This document shows, piece by piece, positions 6,375 to 20,803 of a DNA stretch of 20,803 nucleotides. The first letter of the stretch is position 1. Each line of letters starts with the position of its first letter. Position numbers and translations under genes: made by a program. Location: IMG/VR virus record IMGVR_UViG_2579778622_000006, positions 1 to 20,803 of that record; one strand, 5' to 3'. This DNA is from a virus. Its lineage: Duplodnaviria; Heunggongvirae; Uroviricota; Caudoviricetes. The notes under the pieces were generated by a model. The model saw only the letters and a program-made list of their open reading frames with translations. It had not been told where the DNA came from and made no database searches.

Positions 6375-6575
6375 TTATTTTCCTGTCAGTGATTCCGGCT
6401 TTATTCCGGCGCGAATACAGGCTTCAGAAAAAAAAGCCAGAGAACCAATAACCTCATTATTTCTAAGGCGGCATTGCGATTTCACTTTCCCTTTATCCAG
6501 GAATATCAAAACGCGCCCCGTATAATCAGATGGCACATTAAGCACTACAGGTAAGTGCGCTTCATGATTATTCAT
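6375..6575 (-). CDS. hypothetical protein
   Basis: 66 aa from the ATG at 6575, preceded by a perfect AGGAGG (6585-6590). The longer ORF start at 6644 lacks an RBS. Confidence 0.5.
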   Translation of the reverse strand: MNNHEAHLPVVLNVPSDYTGRVLIFLDKGKVKSQCRLRNNEVIGSLAFFSEACIRAGIKPESLTGK

Positions 6576-6855
6576 GGCTAACCACCTCCTGGAATTTTCT
6601 TCTGTAACGCGCCTCTGCCACATATTCAGCATAGTCCGACGCAATATTGAGAATATCGCTACCCGTTCCTGAATGTTCGGCGGTTTCCAGTAAAAAACAT
6701 GCAGCTTTTACCATGTCAGCAACACATAACAGCGCAATATCTGTATCTTCCGGTGTGCCATCAAATTCCTGTTTCAGGGCATTAAAACGATCATCACGCA
6801 TAACCCCATATTCACAATCAGCAATCAGGATGGCTTTGGCCTCATTCAGTGCCAT
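6568..6855 (-). CDS. hypothetical acidic protein, first clear gene of the leftward replication operon
   Basis: Protein-like C-terminal 95 aa of the 6568-7809 ORF; the stop overlaps the next start by 8 nt. Start is uncertain because the ATG at 6855 has no clear RBS. Confidence 0.45.
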   Translation of the reverse strand: MALNEAKAILIADCEYGVMRDDRFNALKQEFDGTPEDTDIALLCVADMVKAACFLLETAEHSGTGSDILNIASDYAEYVAEARYRRKFQEVVSHE

Positions 6856-7009
6856 ATCAGCGGTAAGCTGTGCGTAGGCCAGCAAATGCGGGATTATTGC
6901 CCCTGTATATTCCGGCTCTCTGATAATGTGGTCGGATGTGTTGATTAAATAGTTTGTGCGAAAAATGCACCTGTAACCATCAGTTAACAACGGATATACA
7001 GGGGGGACC

Positions 7010-7180
7010 ATGAATGATAAGGGGGTGCCGTTTGATGTGCTCCTGCAAAAGCTGAATGCTGCACGCGCCGCAAGGGAACGTGAGCGCATGAGTAATAACC
7101 CTGTCCCTCCTGAATTACCTCGCCCTGAACATTTTCCGCTTGAGGATTTCATCAGGGGACGAATCCGAACAAAACGATAA
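7010..7180 (+). CDS. hypothetical small protein (56 aa)
   Basis: ATG preceded by a G-run; shares the motif FPLE(D/R)FI with the 7424-7618 ORF. Ambiguous: the opposite strand is one long open frame. Confidence 0.25.
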   Translation: MNDKGVPFDVLLQKLNAARAARERERMSNNPVPPELPRPEHFPLEDFIRGRIRTKR

Positions 7181-7231
7181 CCGCCGCCGTGATATGAGGC
7201 ATCACGACGCAATGCATTACAGGTGAGCACC

Positions 7232-7348
7232 ATGAACAAATCCATATTATCCCCCACAGTTCTGGACGTAAACACAAAGCAGCGACAGATATTATTACGC
7301 GCCGTCATTAAAGCCAGACACGAGAAATTAAACCAAATCTTAAAATAA
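7232..7348 (+). CDS. hypothetical small protein (38 aa)
   Basis: AGGTGA RBS 5 nt upstream of the ATG; amphipathic, protein-like sequence. Confidence 0.3.
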   Translation: MNKSILSPTVLDVNTKQRQILLRAVIKARHEKLNQILK

Positions 7349-7423
7349 GATACGCCGCTACCGCTGTAAGTCTTCATCAGAAACAGAAAACGCCAGAGCA
7401 GATGAGCACGGAGGTAACTCTTT

Positions 7424-7618
7424 ATGAAAATAAACGAATCAGGGGAAATTACCGAAGCCAGCGTGGTACGCCAGCGGAGGCGGGAACGACGGGTACGGCC
7501 CCCCGCGCCATCCGATAATTTCCCGCTTGAGCGCTTCATCAGTGAACGGCCCCGCATACGCTGGAACGGCACAACCCCATACCCCGAGGAGAGACAGACA
7601 AAAAACAAACAGCGATGA
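7424..7618 (+). CDS. hypothetical small basic protein (64 aa)
   Basis: GGAGGT RBS 8 nt upstream of the ATG; Arg-rich; FPLERFI motif paralogous to the 7010 ORF. Confidence 0.3.
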   Translation: MKINESGEITEASVVRQRRRERRVRPPAPSDNFPLERFISERPRIRWNGTTPYPEERQTKNKQR

Positions 7619-7897
7619 TGAAATCTGGAGGCCAATACCATCACGCAGCCATCAGGAGATTGCTGACGCGCTTCCTGTTCGCTGGTGGCCTCGATGGTAA
7701 TCACGCGCGGTTGTGCAGTGCTCAGGGCGATAAAACGCCACACAAAGGCCGTTTGTGTGTGCGCCAGGCGTGGGGTATGCTGTCTTACAGCCATAAAACT
7801 ACCTCTCATAACGGTTTGTGGTTAGAAGCCCCGTTACTGCTCCAACAGTGCGGGGCTTCGTCGTTTCAATTGCTGAATTGCATGTATCAGCCCTTGT

Positions 7898-7951
7898 GGT
7901 ATTCAGATTACGTTTTGGTGAATAACATTTCAAGTCTTTTTTGGTATTCAC
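7898..7951 (+). promoter_or_regulatory. candidate operator repeats upstream of the RHH gene
   Basis: TGGTATTCA at 7898-7906 and 7942-7950, with an inverted partner GGTGAATAA at 7916-7924 (TATTCA-N12-TGAATA dyad), in the AT-rich region upstream of the 7995 start. Confidence 0.35.
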
Positions 7952-7994
7952 TTTTGTATTACACTGCATCACGTTATTAATCGGAGGTGCAAAC

Positions 7995-8300
7995 ATGTCC
8001 ACGAGTTCTGTTAACAATAAGTCACAGCAACTGAATGCCAGATTTCCACATGAAGTAGTGAGTGGCATTGAGGCATCCCTACAGCCGGGGGAAACTAAAG
8101 CGAATTTTATAGTTACGGCTGTACGCGGAGAGATCGCCCGCCGCCAGGCAGAAGGAAGAGGAGAAAATCCCCTAGTTTCTTCGCTCGATGCACTGGCGCA
8201 GGTGGAAAAAATCGGTGTCAAAGCTGCCGAGGAGATCGGGCAACTCGTCGCCGTTGCGCGTGAAGAACTCCAGCGGCGCAAAGCCAAAGAGCAGGAATAG
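7995..8300 (+). CDS. ribbon-helix-helix-like DNA-binding protein with coiled-coil C-terminus
   Basis: 101 aa from the ATG at 7995 (GGAGGTG RBS). N-terminal beta-strand/helix pattern (LNARFPHEVVSGIEAS...KANFIVTAVRGEIARR) typical of RHH/Arc-type regulators; followed by a terminator. Confidence 0.6.
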   Translation: MSTSSVNNKSQQLNARFPHEVVSGIEASLQPGETKANFIVTAVRGEIARRQAEGRGENPLVSSLDALAQVEKIGVKAAEEIGQLVAVAREELQRRKAKEQE

Positions 8301-8331
8301 CCCACCAGCAAGCCACCACACTGATCACATT

Positions 8332-8360
8332 GGCCACCGTGACAGGTGGCCTTTGTTTTG
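8332..8360 (+). terminator. rho-independent terminator after the RHH gene
   Basis: GGCCACC-gtgaca-GGTGGCC followed by TTTGTTTTG. Confidence 0.6.
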
Positions 8361-8454
8361 CCTGTTATCCGGCAATTGTGGAGCTTCGTCACACGGTTGA
8401 TATAATTCCCCTGCTCAGATTCATTTTTTGCGCGGCAGGTAAATTGTTCAGAAA

Positions 8455-8482
8455 GGCGGCTCCTTATCGGGGCCGCTTTTTT
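8455..8482. terminator. second hairpin with T-tract between the convergent RHH and alpA genes
   Basis: GCGGC-tccttatcgg-GCCGC followed by TTTTTT (8477-8482) on plus; possibly bidirectional. Confidence 0.4.
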
Positions 8483-8508
8483 CGTGTTTGTCATATCTGT
8501 GATACCCG

Positions 8509-8715
8509 TTAAGCAGCCGTTCCGCGTGCTTCCTGTTCGCGTTCTTTCTGCCAGGCCAACACATCATCCTCATACCATCCGCGACGGCGTAAACCAACGC
8601 GAAAACCCTGCGGAAATTCTCCGGCGTTGATCATGCTTTGCAGCGTGCTGTCTGCCTTGATGTGGATAATTTTTTTTACTTCCTGGCGAAAGATAATTTT
8701 TCTGATTGCTTCCAT
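8509..8715 (-). CDS. alpA: AlpA-family phage transcriptional regulator / excisionase-like HTH protein
   Basis: 68 aa; pattern IIFRQEVKK...GEFPQGFRVGLRRRGWYEDDVLAW matches the AlpA/Vis HTH_17 architecture. Confidence 0.8.
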   Translation of the reverse strand: MEAIRKIIFRQEVKKIIHIKADSTLQSMINAGEFPQGFRVGLRRRGWYEDDVLAWQKEREQEARGTAA

Positions 8716-8848
8716 CGTGATTTACCTTGTGAATCCGGTGTATTCCGGTGACAAATACGGTAAATCATCGGATATGGGTAAAAACAGTTCCCACCGTTTT
8801 TAAACGGTATACACCGTTTTTTATATTGATGATTTGAAATGGAATTAT

Positions 8849-8872
8849 AAAAAAAGCGGCATTTCTGCCGCT
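8849..8872 (-). terminator. rho-independent terminator after the orf83/int transcript
   Basis: AGCGGCA-gaaa-TGCCGCT on minus followed by TTTTTTT (plus 8849-8855 is an A-run); 10 nt past the stop at 8883. Confidence 0.55.
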
Positions 8873-8882
8873 TCCAGGATTG

Positions 8883-9134
8883 TTACCGCCATTTTTTGGG
8901 CCTGCCTCCGATCTTCATAGATGCCGGACGTACGACCTTATCAATACTTACCGCCAGATTTCTGGAAGCGCCACGGGATACCAGAAAATCTACTACCTGT
9001 TTTTTTGATGGGGCCGTCGTCCTGTCCTCCGGATCGTAGGTTGACCAAAATTCATGCTGAACCATCAGGGCCAGTTGCAGCCCGTCGCAATTGCATCTGA
9101 TATTTTTTTGCATCTTAACGGTTTCATGTTTCAC
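8883..9134 (-). CDS. hypothetical protein between int and alpA
   Basis: 83-aa ORF (GTG at 9134 or ATG at 9113) with a terminator directly downstream. Start uncertain. Confidence 0.45.
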   Translation of the reverse strand: MKHETVKMQKNIRCNCDGLQLALMVQHEFWSTYDPEDRTTAPSKKQVVDFLVSRGASRNLAVSIDKVVRPASMKIGGRPKKWR

Positions 9135-9211
9135 GGCCTTGTCGTTAAATTTGATGCAATTATACGACGGTTTTACATGGTTTTCGTAGTTTTTACTGGT
9201 TTTCTGTACAG

Positions 9212-10453
9212 CTACACGGCTCGGATACCCCTTTTACCACTGGCGAGGGTTACGCCCGTCGCCGCAGCCTCGACAAATTCGCCCCACCAGCGCATCAGCA
9301 CGATGCGTTTTTCTATGTAGTTGCTCCGGTTGTATGCCCGTCTAACTTCGTTGGTGTCGACGTGGGCAAGTGCCGCCTCTATTACGTCCGGCTCGAATCC
9401 TTCCTCGTTCGCTGCTGTGCTGAATATGGCGCGTAATCCATGAGACACCAGCACGCCAGCGAATCCCATACGCCGCAATGCTGCGTTAGCTGTCTGGCTG
9501 TTCATCGGCTGCTGTGGGTCTTTCAGACTTGGGAAAACGTAATTGCGGTGGTGGCTGATTGGTTTCATGGCCTCCAGCACCGCCATAGCCTGACCGGAAA
9601 GCGGGATAACGTGATCCCTGCGCATCTTCATGCGTCCGGCAGGTATCGTCCATTGCTTCGCGTCCAGGTTGATTTCATCCCACCGCGTTGATGACGCTTC
9701 GGCGGGACGGGTTACGGTCAGTAACTGCCATTCAATCAGTAATCTGGTCTGCCGTTCTGTTGCCGATACTGATAAAGCCTGCATAAGCTCGGGCAGCTGT
9801 TCGGGGCGGATTGTTGGCATATGTTTTTTTACAGGTGAGGGAAACGCCTTACGCACATTCATAGCCGGATTGGCATCAATCAGCCCACTGTTGGCGGCGT
9901 AATCCATTACCTCATTAACGCGCTGTAAAACCCGCTTGAGTGTTTCCAGGTTGCCGCGCTCCTTGATGGGGGTAAGCACTTCAACGAACCTTCGGGCGGT
10001 GAGGGTATCTATTGGCGTGTTGCCGATGAACGGGAATACATATTTATCCAGCGAACGCCAGATGTCTTTAATCGTGTTGGGGGCCAGATTCTGGCTGATT
10101 TTCACCTGGTACCATGCCGCCGCCACATTTTCGAACGTGTTCCCTTGTCTTCGGGCCTCTGTCTCTCTTTTTTGCCTCTCGTGGTCCTGCGGGTCAGTTC
10201 CGGCACTGATTAACGTCCTGTACTCGCTACGGCGTTTTCTGGCATCAGCCAGGGAAACATCTTCAAGCGATCCAAAACTCAGCAATATTCTTTTTTTGTC
10301 CGATGGTCGGTAGTAGGAAAATCTCCAGAGTTTTGATCCAGACGGTTTGACCAGGAGAAAAAGCCCTCCGCCGTCCTGCAGGGTGTACTCCTTTTGCGCT
10401 GGTCTGGCTGCTTTGATCTGCACTGTGGTTAATGGGTGTGTTTTTCTCGCCAT
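9212..10453 (-). CDS. int: tyrosine recombinase, P4-type integrase
   Basis: N-terminal arm-binding-like domain (LTTVQIKAARPAQKEYTLQDGGGLFLLVKPSGSKLWRFSYY), catalytic C-terminus with R...HGLR and terminal RAYNRSNY (Tyr). Adjacent to the tRNA 3' remnant. ATG at 10453 preferred over the GTG at 10471. Confidence 0.9.
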   Translation of the reverse strand: MARKTHPLTTVQIKAARPAQKEYTLQDGGGLFLLVKPSGSKLWRFSYYRPSDKKRILLSFGSLEDVSLADARKRRSEYRTLISAGTDPQDHERQKRETEARRQGNTFENVAAAWYQVKISQNLAPNTIKDIWRSLDKYVFPFIGNTPIDTLTARRFVEVLTPIKERGNLETLKRVLQRVNEVMDYAANSGLIDANPAMNVRKAFPSPVKKHMPTIRPEQLPELMQALSVSATERQTRLLIEWQLLTVTRPAEASSTRWDEINLDAKQWTIPAGRMKMRRDHVIPLSGQAMAVLEAMKPISHHRNYVFPSLKDPQQPMNSQTANAALRRMGFAGVLVSHGLRAIFSTAANEEGFEPDVIEAALAHVDTNEVRRAYNRSNYIEKRIVLMRWWGEFVEAAATGVTLASGKRGIRAV

Positions 10454-10485
10454 ATGTCTATGATTCCACACGAAAAAACAGGGTT

Positions 10486-10664: not shown

Positions 10665-10671
10665 GGCGATT

Positions 10672-10720
10672 TGGTCGGCACGAGAGGATTTGAACCTCCG
10701 ACCCCCGACACCCCATGACG
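10672..10720 (-). other. tRNA-Pro (GGG-type) 3'-end fragment, 49 nt, not an intact gene; integration (att) junction
   Basis: Minus-strand read CGTCATGGGGTGTCGGGGGTCGGAGGTTCAAATCCTCTCGTGCCGACCA equals the anticodon-loop-to-CCA portion of E. coli tRNA-Pro as recalled; the sequence 5' of it cannot form the acceptor or D arm. Confidence 0.65.
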
Positions 10721-10912
10721 CCGCTTGTAAAACGCTGAGAGCCGCGCTATTGCTGGTTAGAAGTACCATTTGCATGTATAAACAAACAGTGCTTTTTCGA
10801 CATAATCTGCTCTATATACTTCAATGGCTTACATGGTGGTTTCTCCCCATGTTTGAATAGTTTCGAAGAGTTGTGTGACATAATGCCAGAATAAACTACT
10901 AGAGGCTGGATA

Positions 10913-11764
10913 ATGAAAAAAAGAACTAAAAAAGGCAGTAACATTCGTTTCCGAGAACACACTGAGGTTGAGAGGTCTTACATTAGCCTTTATAAGATCT
11001 TCTGCCGCGCTTGTGAAATTTCCGCGGCCATATCACTGAATCAAAGCGGAATTAAGACTGACGGCAGGGGAATACGGGCTGCAAATATTTTCACTCGTCA
11101 AGTGTTGACTGCGCATAGTCTTAAGAAACTACTACCAGTACTGCGAAACGGAGTTAATCCCGATGATACAGTATGGGATGTAACCACTATCGCACTTGTG
11201 TCCAGAAGTGTGATGGAAAATTTTCAGGCGCTTTTTTATTACGGAACGGAAACGGTCTCGGAAGCGGAGGCTGACTTTCGTTTTCGAATTTTCCAGAAAG
11301 ACAGAAATGTTAAATGGCGTGATATCAGACTGAAGGCTGGTGAATCTGAAGAATCACTGGAGGAGTTTTTCACCGGCATACCAAAGCAGCAGGAGGAGAT
11401 AGTGAACCATGAATTCTATAGTTCACTATCTAAAGAACAAAAGAATAGTCTCAAAAACAGGGCCGAAATGTATTATACCAAAGCTGAGTTCGAAGCTCGC
11501 TGCCCGCGGTTAGCCGACATTGCACTACATCACCAGTTACTATCAAATCTGGCTCATCCATTGCCACTGGCTATCCACAGGATTGATGAATTTAGCGGTC
11601 ATGGTGCACCCAGTGAAGCTGACATCTGCTTAGTCATAATATCCCTGAAGGTTGCTACAGACTGCCTAATTGCGTCAGTTGAGGGGATGGGCGAAAAATT
11701 TGCCGATAGTATCGGTATACATTATCGGTCAATGATTGAAGAACTCTCCAATTACTCACTTTGA
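10913..11764 (+). CDS. hypothetical protein, AT-rich cargo gene (candidate accessory or defence function)
   Basis: 283-aa ORF, the only plus-strand gene between the att remnant and the lambdoid int; visibly lower GC than its flanks; convergent terminator hairpin downstream; R-x6-H motif (RLADIALH) in the C-terminal third. Confidence 0.6.
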   Translation: MKKRTKKGSNIRFREHTEVERSYISLYKIFCRACEISAAISLNQSGIKTDGRGIRAANIFTRQVLTAHSLKKLLPVLRNGVNPDDTVWDVTTIALVSRSVMENFQALFYYGTETVSEAEADFRFRIFQKDRNVKWRDIRLKAGESEESLEEFFTGIPKQQEEIVNHEFYSSLSKEQKNSLKNRAEMYYTKAEFEARCPRLADIALHHQLLSNLAHPLPLAIHRIDEFSGHGAPSEADICLVIISLKVATDCLIASVEGMGEKFADSIGIHYRSMIEELSNYSL

Positions 11765-11792
11765 AATTAATACATTCCTCAACTTCCAACAC

Positions 11793-11821
11793 AGAGCAAC
11801 CCGTCCAATTTGGTTTGCTCT
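11793..11821. terminator. hairpin between the convergent 283-aa gene and int
   Basis: AGAGCAA...TTGCTCT stem (with extension) followed by GCTTTATAC. Confidence 0.4.
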
Positions 11822-11857
11822 GCTTTATACTAAAGCAATAAAGGGAGTAATTTATTA

Positions 11858-13036
11858 TTAGCTGGCTTTAATTTCTCCATGGGGAACGACAACCCAATCT
11901 ATATGATTTTGCGTGTAGATCTTGGTTGACTTCGCATCGCTGTGCGCCATTCGTCCTTGTGGATCGATACCCTGCTGATCGAATAGATGCGCTGCTAGTG
12001 CTCGAATTTCGTGAAAGGTTGGTCTTTCATCCATTGGTAGATTGTCGCATAAACCTAGTTTGTCCCGTGTAGCTGAAAACGACCTACTCAAATAGTCCGG
12101 TGCAACTTGAGTAGGATGTGAAACCTCTTTGCTGCGTTTAACTTGGCGTTCTGGGATCCTGTGAACGACAAACGGACTGGCCACATTATCTCGGCTATCG
12201 TCAATTATCCGTTTCAACTCTTCACCAATTGGTATTGCAACGTGTGACGCCTCTTTTTGTTGCACTTTTTGCCTGTGGATGTAAAGCGTCCCATATATGC
12301 CATTTTGTGGTTGTTCGAACCAGACACATCCACATATACCGTCTTTAGGTTCGCGAATTGAGTAACGGATTCGCGATACTTCGAGTCGTGCATGTGTAGT
12401 CTGCAATGCTAGGTCCATTGCTGTTCTTAACCATGGTGCAGCGGCCTGCCTGATAGCTATAAAATGCTCGAGTGACAGGCGCCGTCTTTTCTTCTCATCA
12501 GTCCTACGCATTTTTTTTCTGATGGCCGGGTTATCCAGCATTAGTGATTCATCGACCGCATAAGAGAACAACTTTTTAAGAAAGCTGACCTTTCTGTTCT
12601 GCACATTTGCGGATGCGCTGGCATGATATTTGTTGATGTAGGTATTAACGTGTTCAAGTTCGATATCGCATGCCGGAACATTTACGAAAAACGCTTTTAC
12701 GCGTAGAGCGTCATTTTTCCAGTCATCTAAGGTGCTCTGGGAAGGACGTTCGTCTTCGATAATTCGGGCCATTATGTGATCAACATGTTCAGCAAATGGT
12801 TTTGCTTCTCCGATAACACCGCCAGATTCTCTAATAAGATTATCTACTGATGGAGATAATTCTGGTCGCATCCTCAGGTTGTACTCTCTGGCGATTGCAA
12901 TGGCTATTGCCCTATCCTTACCTATATTTTTCTTCTTTCCGGTAATAAGTGTGAATTTATAAACACCTCGATCTTTATCAAAAATCAGATAATCAGGAAG
13001 ATGTCTGTATTCTTTTTTACGTGGCCTTGCCGCCAT
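11858..13036 (-). CDS. int: tyrosine integrase, lambda Int family
   Basis: Aligns to recalled lambda Int in several blocks (LSLEHFIAIRQAA..WLRTAMDLA vs LTADEYLKIYQAA..WLRLAMELA; RPTFHEIRALAAHLF vs PPTFHELRSLSARLY). ATG at 13036 with GAGGGGTGA RBS; the ORF-track start at 13042 is a GTG. Confidence 0.9.
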   Translation of the reverse strand: MAARPRKKEYRHLPDYLIFDKDRGVYKFTLITGKKKNIGKDRAIAIAIAREYNLRMRPELSPSVDNLIRESGGVIGEAKPFAEHVDHIMARIIEDERPSQSTLDDWKNDALRVKAFFVNVPACDIELEHVNTYINKYHASASANVQNRKVSFLKKLFSYAVDESLMLDNPAIRKKMRRTDEKKRRRLSLEHFIAIRQAAAPWLRTAMDLALQTTHARLEVSRIRYSIREPKDGICGCVWFEQPQNGIYGTLYIHRQKVQQKEASHVAIPIGEELKRIIDDSRDNVASPFVVHRIPERQVKRSKEVSHPTQVAPDYLSRSFSATRDKLGLCDNLPMDERPTFHEIRALAAHLFDQQGIDPQGRMAHSDAKSTKIYTQNHIDWVVVPHGEIKAS

Positions 13037-13038
13037 GG

Positions 13039-13248
13039 TCACCCCTCATTTATTAACTTGCGAACAGCTTGACTAACCATTGAGTCGACTCCCCATTTTT
13101 CTGTTTCGCAGACAAAAACAGAACCGTCCACGATACGCCCCATGAGCAGACCGTTCTCGACCCAGCGTTTTATCGTTCGGTTGTCAGGAATTGAGCCATT
13201 AGAGAATTCACGGCGTCCCCATTGGCTCGCTTTCATTAGTTTTGCCAT
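13039..13248 (-). CDS. xis: excisionase (Xis-like)
   Basis: 69 aa from the ATG at 13248 (GGAGAAA RBS). Pattern ASQWGRREF...RTIKRWVENGLL...DGSVFV resembles lambda Xis (LQEWNARQ...ETVRRWVRE). Lies immediately upstream of int. Confidence 0.7.
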   Translation of the reverse strand: MAKLMKASQWGRREFSNGSIPDNRTIKRWVENGLLMGRIVDGSVFVCETEKWGVDSMVSQAVRKLINEG

Positions 13249-13309
13249 GGCTGTTTCTCCACTTAACCCGCTGCACACGGGCAGTAATATCAAATTTCAG
13301 TCCTGATAA

Positions 13310-13525
13310 TTAATTTTGTTCTATGGTTGCTACCTGTTTAATTGGCCTGATGCTGTCCAGGAGCAGTCGGCGGCGCGTATTTTCTGCAAAGTGGCGGCGT
13401 CCGGTTTCTTTGTGGTAAAACTCGTTTTTTCCGACGACCCACATCCGCTTTGTCTGGTGCAGTTTTTTTACCTGCGGACCGTTTCGGGTAATAACAATTC
13501 CTGTATGAGTTTTTATCACGCTCAT
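13310..13525 (-). CDS. hypothetical protein
   Basis: 71-aa ORF with GGAGAA RBS; start overlaps the upstream stop (ATGA). Confidence 0.5.
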   Translation of the reverse strand: MSVIKTHTGIVITRNGPQVKKLHQTKRMWVVGKNEFYHKETGRRHFAENTRRRLLLDSIRPIKQVATIEQN

Positions 13526-13884
13526 TTCTTATTCTCCGGTGCTTTCGGCATTACTGCCCAGTGAGTGATATTGACGTTTTCAAGGTCCCCGACCTGAAAT
13601 GTCCACTGCCATTCTCCGGTTTCTTTTTGCCCCCATGTGTACCAGAGAGAACGCCAGCCAATCAGCCAGCCTTCTCCGTTAGCATCAAATAACAGAACAC
13701 TTTCATTTGCTGGTGGCAGTTCAGCTGACACTGGTATTACTTTGTTTTCCAGTGCTGCACATTTAGCTTCAAGCGCATCTAATTTACGCACCAGGTATTC
13801 AGCATCCGTTTCATTCACTTTCAGGTCTCGTGGTACACATCTCCCGCGAAGAAACCCTTCCATTTCGAAAACATTCATGCGCAT
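13522..13884 (-). CDS. hypothetical prophage protein (Trp-rich C-terminal domain)
   Basis: 120-aa ORF, GGAG RBS 8 nt upstream of the ATG; coiled-coil N-terminus and Trp-rich C-terminus. Confidence 0.5.
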   Translation of the reverse strand: MRMNVFEMEGFLRGRCVPRDLKVNETDAEYLVRKLDALEAKCAALENKVIPVSAELPPANESVLLFDANGEGWLIGWRSLWYTWGQKETGEWQWTFQVGDLENVNITHWAVMPKAPENKK

Positions 13885-14411
13885 TTGCGTAACTCCGATA
13901 ACTCGTGAAAGCGTTCCATAAACATCCCGTAGGCATGGCCCGGTGGCATTGGAATCACGTTGAACATCTCTGTTGCCGGGATGCCTTCCAGTACAGGCCA
14001 GAAAGAGCCATCATCAAGCCCGAGATCGCGGCGTTCGGTTGCCAGCATAATGAGATCGGCATATTTCACTGGCGTGCTCATAACAGGAGGTAACCCGTAT
14101 TTCTCACGGATTACGGCGTCTATTTTTTCTTCCATCCGTTTATAGTCAGGAAGAAGGCGTTTCAGTGGAGCGGGGATGTCCTGGCAATACGCTTCTGTTG
14201 CATCATGCATTAACGCTTCAAAAGCAAATTCCTGCGGTACCAGCTGGCTGCAAAGAACCGCATGTTGGGCGACGCTGTAGAAGTGTGAAAGATGTCCTGC
14301 AAAGCGACAGATATTTGAAAGGGAAACCGCGATATCGTTAATATCGATGTTGTCTTTATTTATCCGGTCATAATAAAAATGCTTCCCGGAAAAAGTTTTA
14401 ATAAATGACAT
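13875..14411 (-). CDS. HD-domain metal-dependent phosphohydrolase
   Basis: 178 aa from the ATG at 14411 (GGAG RBS); H...HD signature (VAQHAV ... ALMHDATEAY). Confidence 0.7.
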   Translation of the reverse strand: MSFIKTFSGKHFYYDRINKDNIDINDIAVSLSNICRFAGHLSHFYSVAQHAVLCSQLVPQEFAFEALMHDATEAYCQDIPAPLKRLLPDYKRMEEKIDAVIREKYGLPPVMSTPVKYADLIMLATERRDLGLDDGSFWPVLEGIPATEMFNVIPMPPGHAYGMFMERFHELSELRKCA

Positions 14412-15082
14412 TTCGTTCTCCACGTTATATGCGCTGCACCGCGTTGAATTTTGGTTGCAAGAATCCCTCGCCATCCGGCGATTATTGAGTCAATTACGTT
14501 TCCATAAATGCCCCCGCAGGGGCGGTTAGTTTCTCCACAAAACAGAGAAGAACACCTACGGTAGTCACTGCCGGATGGATTGGGTTATGAGCCCATCGTC
14601 CGGTGATGCTCTTCTCTGTTTTGTAAAAAGGGCGGTGCCAGAAAGGACTAAGGAAAAAACTGGTACCGCCAAAGCAATGGCAGTTGTGGTGGGGTTGTCA
14701 CTCAGGCGTATGGTCAACCTGACAACCCGGTGTCCTCAACGGGGAAAGAGTAACCCCGCCATACTTACCGCCGCGCCATTTCGCGGATTACCACAACGCA
14801 GAGAGCACTTAGCCAGTTACGGCACCACACTTTGTCGCGGTTCCATAAATGCCCTCATCGTTGCACCCTGGTCTCTTCCCAGGCGTCAAACCGAATCGCC
14901 ACGCTGGTTAGGCGTCTTATCAGCATCCTCATTGACTTGCACATTCCGGCTACCTGGTTTGTTTGCCCGAGCAAGGAGTGGATTGTCCCCTTTAACGTCT
15001 CCAGACCGCTAACGACGCATGTGCCATACGCCGTGTTACAACCAAATTTTGTTTGAATCTTGCCTGCTTCATGTTTCTTTTG

Positions 15083-15109
15083 GGTACATTATGTATCTCA
15101 AAGGTACAT
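15083..15109. promoter_or_regulatory. candidate left operator (O_L) dyads
   Basis: GGTACAT-t-ATGTATC (15083-15097) overlapping ATGTATC-tcaaa-GGTACAT (15091-15109); same half-site family as the dyads flanking the cI start. Confidence 0.45.
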
Positions 15110-15153
15110 TGTCAAGTATAAAAAAACCTGCCGAAGCAGGTTCATAACATTGA

Positions 15154-15828
15154 TTAGGCTTTGATTTTGTATCTTCTTGGTTTTCCTGAGAAAATTACTG
15201 TACCAATTATAGAGCAATTACCGTTGATCTTAATGTAAGGCTCAGGCCAGTTTGGGTTTAATGCTTTGAGATAACGCTGTGTTCCATCTTCTATCAATCG
15301 CTTGAAGGTGGTTTCGCCTGTATCGTGCATCAACGCAATAACGTCGTCACCGTGGCAAGCAGGGACTTCAGGATCAACAAAAATCATGTCTCCCGGGCGG
15401 TACTCATCAATCATTGAATCACCAATCACCCGCAAGATATAAGTCATTTCGCCACAGGGTACAGGGCAGGGATACGTTTCCGCTGTGCTCAAATCAACCT
15501 CAGAATAACCAACTTCTTTCCATGCTCCGGCCTGTACCCATGATATGACAGGAACTAACGTAATTTGTTTGTTAGTGATTGAAACATCAGGTTTTTTTGT
15601 GATGTTTGTTGTCTGGTGTTCTTGATCAAGCCATCCGACAGGCAGGTCGAAGCATTTTTCGATGTGCCGTGCCATGCTGTCACCGATATTTTTAGTGGCG
15701 CCATCCCCCATAAACCTGCTGGTTTGGGTTGGCTCGCGATCAATCATGGTGGCAAAGGAAGAATTCCCGCCAACACCATCTCTCAGTTTTCTGGCGTTAG
15801 ACCGCCGGATGTCATGGACTGTTTTCAT
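15154..15828 (-). CDS. cI: CI-like prophage repressor with S24 (LexA-type) autopeptidase domain
   Basis: 224 aa. C-terminal S24 signature with catalytic Ser in VIGDSM and Lys in TFKRL; N-terminal HTH-type region; divergent from the cro-like gene across palindromic operators; no strong SD. Confidence 0.85.
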   Translation of the reverse strand: MKTVHDIRRSNARKLRDGVGGNSSFATMIDREPTQTSRFMGDGATKNIGDSMARHIEKCFDLPVGWLDQEHQTTNITKKPDVSITNKQITLVPVISWVQAGAWKEVGYSEVDLSTAETYPCPVPCGEMTYILRVIGDSMIDEYRPGDMIFVDPEVPACHGDDVIALMHDTGETTFKRLIEDGTQRYLKALNPNWPEPYIKINGNCSIIGTVIFSGKPRRYKIKA

Positions 15829-15844
15829 AACGAAATTAAAACCT

Positions 15845-15915
15845 TTGTACCGTTAAGGTACAAGTATCTTGAAGGTTCATTTCAATCATGTAATATGTAT
15901 ACCGGGGGTACATAT
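15845..15915. promoter_or_regulatory. right operator region (O_R) with two palindromes between cI and cro-like starts
   Basis: TTGTACC-gttaa-GGTACAA (15845-15863) and ATATGTATACC-ggg-GGTACATAT (15893-15915). Confidence 0.5.
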
Positions 15916-15918
15916 TGT

Positions 15919-16119
15919 ATGAAAGCGTATTGGAACTCTTTAACCAAAGAACAGCAGGGCGATTTGGCCGGAAAAGTTGGTTCAACACCTGGCTACTTAC
16001 GGCTGGTTTTCAATGGCTATAAAAAAGCCAGCTTTGTACTGGCTAAAAAACTTGAGCAATGCACATCAGGAGCAATTACGAAATCTGACTTAAGACCGGA
16101 TATCTATCCGAAAGATTAG
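15919..16119 (+). CDS. Cro-like HTH regulator (Cro/YdaS-like)
   Basis: 66 aa from the ATG at 15919, immediately after the O_R dyad; HTH-like segment LAGKVGSTPGYLRLVFNGYKKAS; divergent from the repressor. Confidence 0.6.
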   Translation: MKAYWNSLTKEQQGDLAGKVGSTPGYLRLVFNGYKKASFVLAKKLEQCTSGAITKSDLRPDIYPKD

Positions 16120-16150
16120 CAGAAGACCTTCAATTTTTAACCACAGAACG

Positions 16151-16714
16151 ATGAGGCTAACCGTGGGTAAGCATCACTGGAAAGTAAAAAAACAGCCTGA
16201 GTGGTATGTGAAAGCGGTCAGAAAAACTATCGCGGCGTTGCCGGGTGGTTATGCTGAGGCTGCTGACTGGCTGGATGTAACAGAGAACGCATTATTTAAC
16301 CGCCTTCGTGCAGATGGCGATCAGATTTTCCCGCTGGGATGGGCAATGATTTTGCAACGTGCTGGTGGCACTCACTTCATTGCTGACGCTGTGGCGCAGT
16401 CTGCAAATGGCGTCTTTGTGTCTCTTCCTGATATCGAGGATGTGGACAACGCCGATATTAACCAGCGCTTGCTGGAAGTCATTGAACAGATTGGCAGTTA
16501 TTCCAAACAGATTCGTTCGGCAATCGAAGACGGTGTGGTGGAACCGCATGAGAAGACAGCAATTAACGACGAGCTGTACCTGTCAATTTCGAAGCTGCAG
16601 GAGCATGCAGCACTGGTCTACAAAATTTTTTGCGTTTCAGAAAGTAATGACGCCCGCGAGTGTGCAGCTCCGGGCGCCGTGGCGTGTCGTGACTGTGGAG
16701 AAACTAACGCATGA
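16151..16714 (+). CDS. hypothetical early protein (position of a CII-like regulator)
   Basis: 187-aa ORF. The ATG at 16151 lacks an SD; the GTG at 16163 has a GAGG RBS. Stop overlaps the next ORF start (ATGA). Confidence 0.5.
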
Positions 16715-17049
16715 ACAGTTTAACAACACACTACCGTCGCTCGCAACTGATTGCGCTTCCTGTACCGGGTGGAAAAGCGAAGGTGGAATATTGCTATGCA
16801 GTGAATGTACCAGGTGACAGGGAAATTGTAACCCACAGCTTTGCAGAGTGGGCTGTGGGTGATTTCAACCGGCAGAAGGAGACAGTCCTTTGCGACAAGT
16901 TAACCGCTGGTTCAAAGATCACTACGGAGTGCCCGTCAGAGTCATTCGTTGGGAGCCGGAAACACAACGGGTTATCTACCTCCGCGAAGGTTATGAGCAT
17001 GAATGCTTCAGTCCGCTCGAACAGTTTCGTCGTAAATTCAGGGAAATAG
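16711..17049 (+). CDS. hypothetical protein; 3' half doubtful (possible frameshift or overlapping small gene)
   Basis: ORF start coupled to the upstream stop; the first 57 aa are protein-like, the rest is Ser-rich, while an alternative frame (16890-17069) is protein-like. Confidence 0.3.
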
Positions 17050-17058
17050 AGGTCGGTC

Positions 17059-18000
17059 ATGAGCACTAAATTAACCGGCTATGTATGGGATGGTTGCGCT
17101 GCATCAGGCATGAAGTTATCCAGCGTGGCAATTATGGCCCGCCTGGCTGATTTCAGTAATGACGAAGGTGTGTGCTGGCCATCAATTGAAACCATTGCCC
17201 GCCAGATTGGCGCGGGGATGAGTACCGTCAGAACGGCTATCGCACGGCTGGAAGCAGAAGGCTGGTTAACGCGTAAGGCGCGTCGCCAGGGTAACCGCAA
17301 TGCGTCGAATGTTTATCAGCTTAACGTTGCGAAGCTTCAGGCAGCGGCATTTTCTCAACTGTCAGATTCTGACCCGTCAAAATCTGACGCATCAAAATCT
17401 GACCCGTCAAAATTTGATGCGTCGAAATCTGGCAAAAAAGCGGGTTTTCACCCGTCAGAATCTGGCGGGGATCCGTCAGTAAAATCAAAACATGATCCGT
17501 CAGATAAAAATACTTCTCGTCCGGACGCTTCGCAACCGGACACGCAGACGGCTGAACAGGAGTTTTTAACTCGCCATCCTGATGCGGTTGTATTCAGCCC
17601 TAAAAAGCGCCAGTGGGGAACGCAGGATGATTTGACCTGCGCACAGTGGCTCTGGAAAAAAATCATCGCCCTGTACGAGCAGGCCGCCGAATGTGACGGC
17701 GAGGTGGTTCGTCCCAAAGAACCGAACTGGACAGCCTGGGCAAACGAAATTCGCCTGATGTGTGTGCAGGATGGTCGTACTCACAAACAAATCTGCGAGA
17801 TGTACAGCCGCGTCAGCCGCGATCCGTTCTGGTGCCGTAACGTGCTCAGCCCGTCGAAGTTGCGGGAAAAATGGGATGAGCTTTCCCTGCGCTTATCACC
17901 GTCCGTCAGCACGTACACCGAAAAACGCGAAGACCCGTACTTCAAATCCAGTTACGACAACGTGGACTACAGCCAGATCCCGGCAGGATTCAGGGGGTGA
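17059..18000 (+). CDS. replication initiation protein (lambda O-like; N-terminal HTH origin-binding domain)
   Basis: 313 aa. N-terminal HTH-like domain (VAIMARLADFSNDEGVCWPSIETIARQIGAGMSTVRTAIARLEAEGWL), a repeat-encoded linker and a C-terminal domain; iterons inside the gene. Confidence 0.7.
   Translation: MSTKLTGYVWDGCAASGMKLSSVAIMARLADFSNDEGVCWPSIETIARQIGAGMSTVRTAIARLEAEGWLTRKARRQGNRNASNVYQLNVAKLQAAAFSQLSDSDPSKSDASKSDPSKFDASKSGKKAGFHPSESGGDPSVKSKHDPSDKNTSRPDASQPDTQTAEQEFLTRHPDAVVFSPKKRQWGTQDDLTCAQWLWKKIIALYEQAAECDGEVVRPKEPNWTAWANEIRLMCVQDGRTHKQICEMYSRVSRDPFWCRNVLSPSKLREKWDELSLRLSPSVSTYTEKREDPYFKSSYDNVDYSQIPAGFRG
17361..17465 (+). repeat. iteron array inside the O-like gene (putative prophage ori)
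   Basis: Four tandem 15-bp units TCTGAC(C/G)C(G/A)TCAAAA at 17368-17427, plus degenerate copies to about 17465, followed by an A-rich stretch; encodes SDPSK/SDASK pentapeptide repeats. Confidence 0.5.
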
Positions 18001-18002
18001 TC

Positions 18003-18491
18003 ATGAGTCTTTTGAATGAAGTTCAGAAATTCATTGAAGCCCATCCGGGGTGTACTTCCGGAGACATTGCGGATGCTTTTGCAGGTTACTCACGGCAGCG
18101 CGTTCTGCAGTCAGCAAGCAAGTTACGTCAGAGTGGGCGTGTAGCTCACCGTTGTGAAGGAGATACACGCAGACATTTCCCACGCCTGACTGAGAGAGCG
18201 CAGAAGCCGGAACCACAACCAGTTCGTGAAACCAGACCTGTGCGCAATTTCTATGTCGGCACTAACGATCCCCGGGTGATTTTGTGCCTGACCCGCCAGG
18301 CGGAAGAACTGGAGTCCAGGGGCTTATACCGTCGTGCTGCAACGGTGTGGATGGCGGCATTCCGTGAAAGCCACTCCCAGCCAGAACGAAACAATTTTCT
18401 GGCGCGTCGTGAGCGGTGCTTACGGAAAAGCAGCAAGCGCGCTGCATCGGGTGAAGAGTGGTATCTGTCAGGGAATTACGTGGGGGCTTAA
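18003..18491 (+). CDS. winged-helix plus PerC-like domain protein
   Basis: ATG at 18003 with AGGGGG RBS. N-terminal wHTH-like region; C-terminal AEELESRGLYRRAATVW, the same motif as the satellite PerC-like gene at 3461-3781. Confidence 0.5.
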   Translation: MSLLNEVQKFIEAHPGCTSGDIADAFAGYSRQRVLQSASKLRQSGRVAHRCEGDTRRHFPRLTERAQKPEPQPVRETRPVRNFYVGTNDPRVILCLTRQAEELESRGLYRRAATVWMAAFRESHSQPERNNFLARRERCLRKSSKRAASGEEWYLSGNYVGA

Positions 18492-19144
18492 TGAGTAATA
18501 AATATTGCCAGGCGCTGGTGGAGCTGCGGAACAAACCAGCCCATGAACTGAAGGAAGTGGGCGATCAGTGGCGCACGCCGGATAACATTTTCTGGGGAAT
18601 TAACACCCTGTTTGGCCCGTTTGTTCTGGATCTGTTCACTGATGGTGATAACGCCAAATGTGCCGCTTATTACACTGCGGAAGACAACGCGCTGGCGCAT
18701 GACTGGTCTGAACGTCTTGCGGAGCTTAAAGGTGCTGCCTTTGGTAATCCCCCATACAGCCGCGCCAGTCAGCATGAGGGGCAATACATCACCGGCATGC
18801 GTTACATCATGAAGCATGCCAGTGCCATGCGTGATAAAGGCGGGCGCTATGTTTTCCTGATCAAAGCTGCCACCAGCGAAGTGTGGTGGCCGGAAGATGC
18901 AGATCATATTGCTTTTATTCGCGGGCGTATTGGTTTTGAACTGCCTGTCTGGTTTATCCCGAAAGACGAGAAGCAGGTGCCGACAGGAGCGTTCTTCGCT
19001 GGTGCTATTGCTGTTTTCGACAAGACCTGGAAGGGACCGGCAATCAGCTACATCGGGCGCGATGAACTTGAGGCATGTGGTGAGGCCTTTCTGGCGCAGG
19101 TTCGCCAGCAGGCAGAAAAACTTGTCAGGGAGATGGCGGCATGA
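18491..19144 (+). CDS. phage N6-adenine DNA methyltransferase (Dam-type)
   Basis: 217 aa from the ATG at 18491 (overlaps the upstream TAA); catalytic NPPY motif (GNPPYS). Confidence 0.8.
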   Translation: MSNKYCQALVELRNKPAHELKEVGDQWRTPDNIFWGINTLFGPFVLDLFTDGDNAKCAAYYTAEDNALAHDWSERLAELKGAAFGNPPYSRASQHEGQYITGMRYIMKHASAMRDKGGRYVFLIKAATSEVWWPEDADHIAFIRGRIGFELPVWFIPKDEKQVPTGAFFAGAIAVFDKTWKGPAISYIGRDELEACGEAFLAQVRQQAEKLVREMAA

Positions 19145-19467
19145 CGACGTTAACTCAATGCCAGCAGCAGGTGCTGGATATGCTGATTTCTTACCAGAAA
19201 GAGCGTGGCTTTCCGCCAACCAATCAGGAGGTGGCAACCATGCTGGGATACCGTTCAGTGAATGCAGCAGTGGAGCATCTTCGCGCACTGGAGAAAAAAG
19301 GCGTCATCACGATAAAGCGTGGCGTGGCCCGGGGCATCACGCTTCATACCGCGGTGAAGGACGACGACAGCGAGGCGGTCGGGATTATCCGCTCACTGCT
19401 TGCCGGTGAGGAAAACGCCAGGCTGCGTGCAGCCCACTGGTTACATGAGAGGGGCCTGAAAGTATGA
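19141..19467 (+). CDS. LexA N-terminal DNA-binding-domain-like protein lacking the S24 peptidase domain
   Basis: 108 aa; LTQCQQQVLDMLISYQKERGFPPTNQEVATMLGYRSVNAAVEHLRALEKKGVITIKRGVARGITL aligns residue-for-residue with the recalled E. coli LexA N-terminal domain. No GDSM/K catalytic region. Confidence 0.65.
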   Translation: MTTLTQCQQQVLDMLISYQKERGFPPTNQEVATMLGYRSVNAAVEHLRALEKKGVITIKRGVARGITLHTAVKDDDSEAVGIIRSLLAGEENARLRAAHWLHERGLKV

Positions 19468-19853
19468 AGCTGATTCTGCCGTTTCCGCCCAGCGTGAACA
19501 CGTACTGGCGACACCCCAACAAAGGGGCGTTTGCTGGTAAGAGCCTGATAAGCACGGCGGGACGCAAATTCCAGGGCGCGGCGTGTGCCGCCATCATTGA
19601 GCAGTTACGTCGTCTGCCGAAACCAACGTCGGCACCTGCTTCAGTGGAGATCGTGTTGTTTCCACCGGACAACCGGATCCGCGATCTGGACAACTATAAC
19701 AAGGCACTGTTTGACGCCCTGACCCACGCGGGTGTGTGGGAAGACGACAGTCAGGTGAAAAGGATGCTGGTGGAGTGGGGACCGGTTATCCCGGAAGGGA
19801 AGGTCGAGATCACCATCAGTAAGTACGAGAAAACGGCGGGTGCAGCCGCCTGA
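19464..19853 (+). CDS. rusA: RusA-family Holliday junction resolvase
   Basis: 129 aa; LPFPPSVNTYWRH ... RDLDNYNKALFDALTHAGVWEDDSQV matches RusA (LPWPPSNNRYYRH ... [26 protein letters not shown]). Confidence 0.85.
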   Translation: MKLILPFPPSVNTYWRHPNKGAFAGKSLISTAGRKFQGAACAAIIEQLRRLPKPTSAPASVEIVLFPPDNRIRDLDNYNKALFDALTHAGVWEDDSQVKRMLVEWGPVIPEGKVEITISKYEKTAGAAA

Positions 19854-19872
19854 TCAAGAGGAGAAACGAAGT

Positions 19873-20682: not shown

Positions 20683-20689
20683 GGTGACC

Positions 20690-20803
20690 GTGAGAGCACT
20701 ACTGCCCCCTGAAATTGCCCCGCGTATGGGGATCGTATTGTTCAGACCAGGTTCAGAGCTGATGCCCCTGTTTATGCAGGGGCGTGTCCTGCTGGAGCCT
20801 GAG
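20690..20803 (+). CDS. partial CDS (5' end only), unknown function, continues past window end
   Basis: Open frame from GTG 20684/20690 to the window edge; protein-like (ALLPPEIAPRMGIVLFRPGSELMPLF). Confidence 0.3.
   Translation, partial: MRALLPPEIAPRMGIVLFRPGSELMPLFMQGRVLLEPE

Follow-up and report, generated by a model that had tools for sequence, protein, structure and literature searches.

Which protein keeps the replication and capsid genes of Escherichia coli phage-inducible chromosomal islands (PICIs) switched off, and could it be the product of a small ribbon-helix-helix (RHH) gene situated beside alpA? The locus that raises this question belongs to IMG/VR virus record IMGVR_UViG_2579778622_000006, whose 20,803 nucleotides were analysed as a whole (the window). 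With a gene set that matches, capsid and decoration genes included, the Gram-negative model PICI EcCICFT073, the window island is an EcCICFT073-type PICI. A reading of the bare sequence (the original prediction) had described a self-contained unit of operator-like repeats, RHH gene and strong terminator, and had proposed it as the master repressor of the satellite in an Stl-like role, or as the antitoxin-like half of a small module. According to the analysis presented here, the cassette is probably an immunity or maintenance module: a Mnt-like repressor of the replication operon that would also regulate its own synthesis, would swap recognition strand and operators together, and would be bypassed by AlpA-driven read-through. 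Judged from sequence, the encoded member of the YlcI/YnfO family is the best candidate so far for the missing repressor of E. coli-type PICIs.

The location of the gene was correctly predicted. It converges on alpA and lies between alpA and the satellite replication operon (Icd-like element, DUF4222, RepA-type helicase), which begins at about 7809 on the minus strand and is divergent from the RHH gene (Table 1). In pairwise comparisons of 15 loci, sense-frame identity exceeded antisense identity in 105 of 105 pairs. The mean BLOSUM62 score of mismatches was +0.13 in the sense frame versus -1.06 in the antisense frame, the latter resembling random changes. In view of this sense-frame conservation, the Shine-Dalgarno sequence, a conserved -10 element and two plus-strand terminators, the RHH gene on the plus strand is real. 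It is carried by 654 of 5426 complete E. coli genomes (about 12%), including Nissle 1917. The 122 close homologues, nearly all of about 101 residues, come from Escherichia, Salmonella, Yersinia, Citrobacter, Enterobacter, Serratia, Erwinia and others. Loci from Photorhabdus, Xenorhabdus, Enterobacter and Phytobacter were added by scanning species-representative genomes, which gave 8 loci only; further diversity was obtained by look-ups of the exact protein. Among 1.84 billion cluster representatives, 78 clusters matched, of which about 15 are full length and the others consist of the N-domain only (45-65 residues). A tblastn search of the 101-residue protein against 50,697 phage records yielded zero matches, and the matches listed by a second protein search were all close relatives.

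The protein belongs to NCBIfam family NF041551 (YlcI/YnfO_N): it scores 60.3 bits, where the cut-off is 30, and its residues 9-50 cover profile positions 1-42 of 42. It further matches two PHROGs of unknown function, and its N-domain is common to the short YlcI/YnfO proteins (phrog_949, E 1.2e-19). Pfam assigned no family to the 101-residue protein, and a Pfam search at E ≤ 10 with 25 N-domains returned no RHH family. Sequence searches of the PDB gave no significant match; the N-domain profile reached only phi29 p16.7 (E 0.5). In the structural models, the N-terminal part is RHH-like, with a strand at about residues 11-17 and helices at 19-27 and 35-54 (predicted local distance difference test, pLDDT, of 81 for the N-domain model). 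The C-terminal part is predicted by AlphaFold2 (AF2) to be one long helix (residues 59-100, pLDDT > 90), which matches coiled coils only. A similarity of residues 45-86 to the Hef helix-hairpin-helix domain, found with the full-length profile (E 0.027), was dropped because AF2 predicts a single continuous helix there. The nearest folds include the RHH antitoxins CopA_SO (6iya), VapB12 (7e4j) and Rv0298 (8u12). The RHH fold assignment is therefore probably right, albeit with modest scores. The architecture of an RHH domain followed by a long helix would be Mnt-like, and the helix probably joins dimers into tetramers.

In an hhalign comparison with a weak score (P 0.0047), Q12, N14 and R16 fall on Q9, N11 and R13 of Arc, which are the base-contacting residues of that repressor. 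The C-terminal two thirds of the protein are very conserved, and the first 35 or so residues occur in discrete types: R16 is invariant among the homologues, and positions 12 and 14 differ by type.

The predicted repeats, given as TATTCA-N12-TGAATA, had to be modified. Copies of TATTCA lie at 7900-7905 and 7945-7950, and one of TGAATA at 7919-7924. The repeats are indeed clustered, but the spacing is N13, and they form one dyad accompanied by a third copy and a degenerate fourth site. The exact 9-mer TGGTATTCA is found only at 7897 and 7942 in the window. With one mismatch allowed, there are 12 hits versus 4.7 +/- 2.0 in shuffled sequences, and three of the hits lie within 55 bp. The four putative sites were named Oa, Ob, Oc and Od; Od was assigned solely by alignment with relatives (CTGAATACC in locus L023, GTGAATCTC in L009). 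A further one-mismatch copy of the 9-mer (TGGCATTCA) lies inside the RHH gene at 8032-8040 on the minus strand, on codons L13-N14-A15 of the recognition strand, and is probably a coding coincidence.

The 200 nt upstream of the gene were compared in 22 related loci, 16 of which were aligned. All 22 share one order of elements on the plus strand: leader hairpin, Oa, the reverse complement of a -10 element, Ob, GTCAAG, T-tract, Oc, TGTG-TATA(A/C/T)T, Od, Shine-Dalgarno sequence and ATG. GTCAAG is the reverse complement of the -35 sequence TTGAC, and sigma-70-like promoters can be read on the minus strand (TTGACG-17-TAATAT in Photorhabdus, TTGACA-17-TAAAGT in Nissle, TTGACG-18-TATAGT in EcCICFT073, TTGAAA-17-TAATCT in the window). 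In the 16 aligned loci, TTG in the -35 and TA in the -10 element form invariant columns, and four variable blocks stand at fixed columns. In the leftward promoter, Pleft, one site lies in the spacer and one over the -10/+1 edge; the gene's own promoter, Pright, mirrors this layout. These features suggest an RHH-type regulator with its own operator.

The sequence of the sites varies with the recognition strand. Sites of the form [G/T]ATTCA/TGAAT go with the strand QQ(L/I)NARFP (window, Yersinia, Phytobacter), GTGATTC with KQISIRIP, GTGTGTTTC/GAAACACAC with QLTTVRVP (E. coli, Photorhabdus, Xenorhabdus) and GTGTAAG/CTTACAC with QSLTARIP (Nissle, Enterobacter). The remaining strand types have other site cores. 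Like cores recur together with like strands in distant hosts, namely in E. coli and Photorhabdus/Xenorhabdus, in E. coli and Enterobacter, and in E. coli, Yersinia and Phytobacter. For the 16 loci, a Mantel test of site distance versus strand distance gave r 0.45 (p 1e-4), compared with r 0.16 (p 0.10) for the interleaved scaffold and r 0.12 (p 0.16) for the leader hairpin as controls. Types B, C and E have near-identical helices A and B and differ almost only at residues 2-17; their cores are GTGATTC, GTGTTTC and GTGTAAG. Furthermore, one and the same AlpA protein (WP_000387478.1) adjoins three cassettes, which are of type A in E. coli B771, of type E in Nissle and unrelated in E. coli LH50-c. 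Window and locus L017 have different sites, yet they are 90-100% identical in the leader and the first leftward gene. Thus, on the level of sequence, it is the RHH protein's N-terminal strand that the sites follow, and not AlpA, the leader or the bases between the sites. Given the alignment of Q12/N14/R16 with Arc, the type-variable positions 12 and 14 and the cores that change with strand type, the N-terminal strand appears to determine site specificity in the manner of RHH proteins.

Two comparisons indicate that strand and sites are exchanged as a block. Between the window and L017, identity is 90-100% at 7720-7840 and 92-100% at 8120-8480, whereas the specificity module in between is only 50-70% identical. 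In LH50-c (L014), the whole cassette is replaced by 375 nt (L014 1732-2106), and the islands are 99% identical on both sides. The replacement contains TGTCA-type repeats and downstream of them, starting with an ATG at 1823, an unannotated RHH-like protein of 58 residues (MSTNDNKKERFSVQLRLDADLFERL...). The latter has matches to the RHH domain of NikR (E 0.0012), to YlcI_YnfO_N (E 0.0039) and to Pfam family RHH_1 (E 0.02), and so connects the YlcI/YnfO domain with RHH proteins. On the opposite strand, the Prokaryotic Genome Annotation Pipeline (PGAP) has called a 540-residue 'Icd-like protein'. From these sequence comparisons, the position between alpA and the Icd-like gene is a swap site for candidate RHH repressor cassettes. 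Short forms also exist among the close relatives. Nissle 1917 carries the full-length form, and EcCICFT073 itself (L013; CFT073, NC_004431.1 1380242-1380652) has in this position a 59-residue form, in which the RHH domain is joined straight to the C-terminal tail without the long helix. There, two GGTGTGGCCCAC sites bracket the -10 element of the leftward promoter, and a co-directional open reading frame (ORF) of 62 residues and no known family lies 3' of the gene. This short form may bear on why no repressor was noticed in EcCICFT073.

The strong terminator of the original prediction is present directly behind the RHH gene, and a second one follows just inside the alpA 3' flank. U-runs follow the hairpins only on the plus strand; the corresponding minus-strand sequences are AAUGUG for the RHH-gene terminator and CUUUCUG for the second. 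Both terminators are predicted to work rightward only, and AlpA-driven transcription can therefore probably cross the cassette. The unit is thus self-contained in possessing its own gene, sites and terminator, but not in the opposite direction: the terminators serve the plus strand only, and the whole unit lies antisense inside a stop-free frame (8494->7799, ORF A), which starts with an ATG 14 nt past the alpA stop codon and overlaps the start of the Icd-like ORF B by 11 nt. In LH50-c, ORF A and ORF B are fused (595 codons). The third codon positions of the antisense frame and of the RHH gene fall together.

The open frame is a general feature of these loci. In the 18 loci first examined, no stop occurs in this frame inside the RHH gene; the open stretch comprises 149-635 codons and in 11 of the 18 runs in frame into the Icd-like ORF. 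In a set of 20 loci, the frame is open across terminator region, RHH gene, operators and leader in 17. For these 20 loci, stops in the antisense frame versus the other two frames number 0 versus 78 and 114 inside the gene, 1 versus 95 and 45 in the 150 nt downstream (terminators), and 12 versus 92 and 102 in the 170 nt upstream (operator, leader), all 12 being contributed by L003, L025 and L028. When the count is limited to the type-specific site blocks, it is 0 versus 29 for the 13 aligned loci in which the frame is open. The absence of stops is only mildly surprising within the gene, and unexpected in the non-coding flanks. No Pfam family was found for ORF A or ORF B, and their amino-acid sequence is not conserved. 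As the frame also stays open across the unrelated LH50-c cassette, it seems to be kept open for translation rather than for a product, which suggests a resemblance to the eta frame of satellite phage P4.

These observations can be combined in a scheme in which the anatomy is observed and DNA binding, repression, tetramer formation, read-through and interference are what we infer from it. The strands of the RHH dimer would read Oa-Od, and the long helix would assemble tetramers. Oa and Ob flank Pleft, the presumed internal promoter for the Icd-like, replication (DUF4222, RepA helicase, SSB) and capsid genes, and Oc and Od flank the gene's own promoter. Since the sites bracket both -10 elements, the bound protein would shut Pleft and limit its own synthesis in the quiescent island. 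Swapping the operators and the first 42 codons as one block among otherwise identical islands would create distinct immunity types. The two rightward-only terminators would shield alpA from antisense transcription. When a helper phage turns on alpA, leftward transcription, translated en route, would traverse the cassette, interfere with the RHH gene oriented against it and arrive at the operon irrespective of the state of Pleft. Antitermination perhaps also sustains this read-through, an idea that draws on AlpA of P. aeruginosa, which is reported to be an antiterminator (PMC7969949, PMC9371919).

A more far-reaching version of this scheme can be formulated. EcCICFT073-type PICIs would then have a master repressor, encoded by an exchangeable RHH cassette that lies antisense in a translated 'spacer' frame with the sole function of carrying ribosomes, and with them RNA polymerase, from alpA to the operon. 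Convergent transcription would make a two-state switch, read-through would silence the RHH gene by collision or antisense pairing, and the highly conserved C-terminal helix could be the target of an anti-repressor that is helper-encoded or AlpA-dependent. In its entirety, this version is tentative and we consider it rather doubtful.

Several points weigh against the repressor scheme. One comes from EcCICFT073, where AlpA is a helper-induced activator that acts on its own promoter, and where over-expression of AlpA alone leads to excision and replication (PMC6092414). An island with the 59-residue form is thus induced by AlpA alone, and the protein is insufficient to hold the island off against AlpA; AlpA must override or bypass it. 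The Stl-like master repressor of the original prediction is only partly upheld: the RHH-type protein, the sites bracketing the operon promoter, the covariation with the strand over 16 loci and the position known from Stl/Rpr would fit a repressor of the satellite operon. In the window, Od is degenerate, Pright has no recognisable -35 element, and Pleft agrees with the consensus at 8 of 12 positions and was missed by a consensus scan. The operators adjoin the N-terminal codons, and the covariation could partly be linkage, albeit the interleaved-scaffold control speaks against this. Finally, three of 20 loci (L003, L025, L028) have antisense-frame stops near the RHH start, and within a gene a stop-free antisense frame has a probability of 0.10-0.43, given the protein sequence.

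Other explanations of the locus have to be compared with the repressor scheme. The protein might regulate these sites without being the operon repressor, by autoregulation only, by activating Pleft, or through a role in excision, choice of replication origin or packaging. Its N-domain is common to the short YlcI/YnfO proteins, which might serve such roles near lambdoid terminase genes; the short genes adjoin nohD and nohA in the prophages DLP12 and Qin. A dual activity would have a precedent in Mnt, which represses one promoter and activates another. Moreover, the induction of EcCICFT073 by AlpA alone (PMC6092414) leaves room for such a role. The placement of sites in the spacer and over the -10/+1 edge, mirror-symmetric on both promoters, is however the classic geometry of repression, and with no relative in the 50,697 phage records searched by tblastn, a common phage function is not evident; we regard a non-repressor role as unlikely. 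It is considerably less likely that AlpA or a host protein binds the repeats and that the RHH-like ORF does something unrelated. Among the regulators of these islands, experiments support AlpA only (PMC6092414), but a single AlpA protein stands beside three site sets, the leader and first leftward gene of the window and L017 are nearly the same while the sites differ, and the sites follow the RHH N-terminal strand. As identical AlpA accompanies three different cassettes, AlpA was rejected as the binder of the repeats.

The antitoxin-like function considered in the original prediction, in which the protein would be part of a two-gene module, of the type II toxin-antitoxin or a similar kind, that the repeats would merely autoregulate, has only a very slight chance of being correct. 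RHH antitoxins are among the nearest folds, and in some relatives a small co-directional ORF lies 3' of the gene (84 residues in L019, 75 in L021, 62 in EcCICFT073). These ORFs, however, lack homology from locus to locus and have no family match. In the window, only 32 nt separate the stop codon from the terminator stem, and no partner ORF follows on the plus strand; without an adjacent co-transcribed partner gene, the toxin-antitoxin module was rejected. In addition, two of the four sites bracket a promoter that faces the opposite operon, and the long C-terminal helix is conserved although no partner gene is present. Slighter still is the chance that there is no RHH protein and that the plus-strand ORF is the shadow of a long minus-strand gene for an 'Icd-like protein' of 428-595 residues. 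This would be in line with the minus frame, which traverses the region without a stop in 17 of 20 loci, and with the Icd-like calls of 540 residues in LH50-c (PGAP) and 428 residues in Yersinia (gene caller). It is contradicted by the conservation on the plus frame in every one of the 105 pairs, with random-like antisense substitutions, and by the Shine-Dalgarno sequence, conserved -10 element and two terminators of the plus-strand gene. The long minus-strand ORFs, moreover, belong to no Pfam family, and their frame is open across the unrelated cassette, too. The reading of the cassette as a probable immunity or maintenance module with a Mnt-like repressor is therefore preferred.

Table 1. Positions of the features discussed, given in window coordinates; sites, promoters and terminators are predictions.
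Feature	Position	Strand	Remarks
RHH-like YlcI/YnfO-family gene	7995-8300	+	101 residues; Shine-Dalgarno sequence upstream; converges on alpA
Shine-Dalgarno sequence GGAGG	7983-7987	+	7 nt ahead of ATG; purine-rich block at the same place in 16 aligned loci
Putative site Oa	7897-7906		TGGTATTCAG; overlaps -10/+1 edge of leftward promoter
Putative site Ob	7916-7925		TGGTGAATAA; core inverted relative to Oa; in spacer of leftward promoter
Putative site Oc	7942-7951		TGGTATTCAC; in spacer of rightward (own) promoter
Putative site Od	7964-7972		CTGCATCAC; degenerate; at -10/+1 edge of own promoter
Pleft, predicted	7905-7933	-	-35 TTGAAA (7933->7928), 17-nt spacer, -10 TAATCT (7910->7905); faces Icd-like/replication operon
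Pright (own promoter), predicted	7937-7965	+	-10 TACACT (7960-7965), aligned with TATACT/TATAAT of relatives; poor -35 in T-tract 7937-7942
Specificity module	7860-8120		operators plus codons 1-42; 50-70% identical to L017
Exchangeable cassette	7832-8344		replaced by 375 nt in E. coli LH50-c (L014), 99% identical on both sides
RHH-gene intrinsic terminator	8332-8359	+	stem 8332-8351, 7-bp G+C-rich hairpin, then UUUGUUUU; dG -18.8 kcal/mol, z -3.8
Second terminator	8450-8490	+	just inside alpA 3' flank; dG -21.6, z -4.5, then UUUUUU
Leader hairpin of leftward transcript	7825-7859	-	between Pleft and Icd-like start codon; dG -23 kcal/mol, z -5.0
ORF A	7799-8494	-	231 residues; stop-free; antisense to whole cassette; ATG 14 nt past alpA stop
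ORF B, Icd-like domain	6568-7809	-	start overlapped 11 nt by ORF A
alpA	8509-8715	-	convergent neighbour of RHH gene; Pfam Phage_AlpA E 0.0035, under curated cut-off; PGAP: helix-turn-helix (HTH) regulator, WP_000387478.1
P4-type integrase gene	9212-10471	-	right of RHH gene

E. coli B771, which carries the island at a tRNA-Pro gene adjoining yejM, matches positions 7600-8800 with 100% identity. Left of the RHH gene, the minus strand encodes the Icd-like element, DUF4222, a RepA-type helicase, SSB, PerC, ProQ/FinO, the major capsid protein and a head decoration protein. The synteny of int, alpA, RHH gene (on the opposite strand), small genes, DUF4222 and primase or helicase is kept in the loci for which both flanks are known. 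No intact tRNA was found in the window. The att end of the island overlaps by about 50 bp (10670-10720) with the end of a lambdoid prophage within 10670-20803, whose genes include int (11858-13042) and genes for a CI-like repressor (15154-15828), a CII-like protein (16151-16714) and an O-like protein (17059-18000). Satellite and possible helper prophage thus appear to stand in tandem at the tRNA-Pro site.

The leader hairpin of the leftward transcript is kept in all related loci, including the island with the alternative cassette; some two-sided changes occur in it, and an invariant TCTAACCA comes next. A function as intrinsic terminator was excluded, as it has no U-run. Between the two terminators, a block of about 140 nt (8352-8490, plus strand) is conserved across islands with differing alpA types and cassettes. 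It contains an extended -10 element (TGATATAAT, 8398-8406) about 45 nt ahead of the second terminator and may encode a candidate small RNA of about 75 nt, which would be antisense both to the 3' end of alpA and to the beginning of ORF A and has no Rfam match. Within ORF B, the stretch 6930-7640 is present in only 10 of 5426 complete E. coli genomes, in all of them with at least 99% identity, and both strands are open. The plus-strand ORFs 7010-7180 and 7424-7618 share a P..FPLE.FI..R motif, and their frame relation to ORF B matches that of the RHH gene to ORF A. They are either embedded genes or shadow ORFs; for the small plus-strand ORFs at 7010-7618, no homologues in the fetched loci and no family match were found.

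If the RHH protein is the operon repressor, the silence of the island without a helper phage would be explained. The pairs of operator and strand would then define immunity types, which should govern cross-regulation of related islands in one cell, and they would provide a compact orthogonal repressor/operator set for the engineered PICIs that now serve as delivery vehicles. Separately, the stop-free antisense frame offers a testable example of a frame that is apparently kept open for translation and not for its product. RHH repressors acting on divergent promoters are already known from Mnt and Arc of phage P22, and the eta-like frame has a precedent in P4. What the sequences add is the YlcI/YnfO family as candidate repressor of EcCICFT073-type PICIs, the exchangeable strand/operator pairs, and the antisense nesting in a stop-free frame. 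Full-text literature searches, with most subscription journals outside their scope, retrieved neither a functional study of YlcI, YnfO or DUF3950 nor a paper pairing an RHH protein or the YlcI/YnfO family with PICIs.

Among known systems, Mnt and Arc are the closest in kind. They are small RHH repressors of the immI region of P22, in which the N-terminal strand reads the bases. The predicted equivalence of Q12/N14/R16 to Q9/N11/R13 of Arc, and the modelled RHH domain followed by a C-terminal helix as in Mnt, would be shared features. By analogy, so would be the operators over two close divergent promoters, one of which is the repressor's own, and the use as a maintenance switch for a lytic-type function. 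In contrast, the sequence similarity is not significant (hhalign P 0.0047 for Arc and 0.044 for Mnt), and four sites with centres about 20-25 bp apart replace the single 17-21 bp operator. Moreover, the controlled function here would be a satellite replication and capsid operon instead of an antirepressor, and a long open frame on the other strand encloses the gene.

The immunity region of P4 (vis, eta/kil, PLE, CI RNA) is similar in its position directly past alpA/vis and ahead of the replication genes. The c4-icd-ant region of phage P1 is a second precedent. In P4, eta is coupled to the alpA homologue vis and contains an internal early promoter; translation of eta prevents termination, and immunity is exerted by the CI RNA, which causes premature termination (PMC10111431). 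The window likewise has a long ORF that is coupled to alpA, reaches to 7799, holds a predicted internal early promoter and may keep read-through from the upstream inducible promoter from terminating, and an Icd-like coding element is present. It differs in that the opposite strand carries a gene for a candidate protein repressor, in the putative operators on the internal promoter and in the lack of a detectable RNA of the CI/C4 type. The cassette would be a counterpart, made of protein, of the P4 immunity region. Rfam searches at gathering thresholds (whole window) and at E ≤ 10 (6400-9300) returned no C4, isrK or other credible family; the best match at E ≤ 10 was isrD-like, to the terminator hairpin (E 0.46).

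Stl and Rpr of the Gram-positive PICIs, the SaPIs (Staphylococcus aureus pathogenicity islands), are larger, HTH-type proteins, whereas the protein found here has 101 residues and is RHH-like. Their genes, too, lie between int and the replication module and are divergent from the operon, with the regulatory region in between (PMC6092414). The RHH gene occupies this position, which is conserved in the related loci with both flanks known, but int and alpA have the orientation of the operon. Stl is moreover defined by derepression through binding of a helper-phage protein, whereas the helper input in EcCICFT073 is the induction of alpA (PMC6092414).

By sequence, the nearest relatives are the YlcI/YnfO proteins of cryptic lambdoid prophages, with which the RHH protein shares the N-terminal domain of 42 residues. 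In most of the 78 clusters, these proteins consist of the N-domain only, and they have no described function. The satellite form adds to this domain a conserved helix of 45 residues and a fixed regulatory position.

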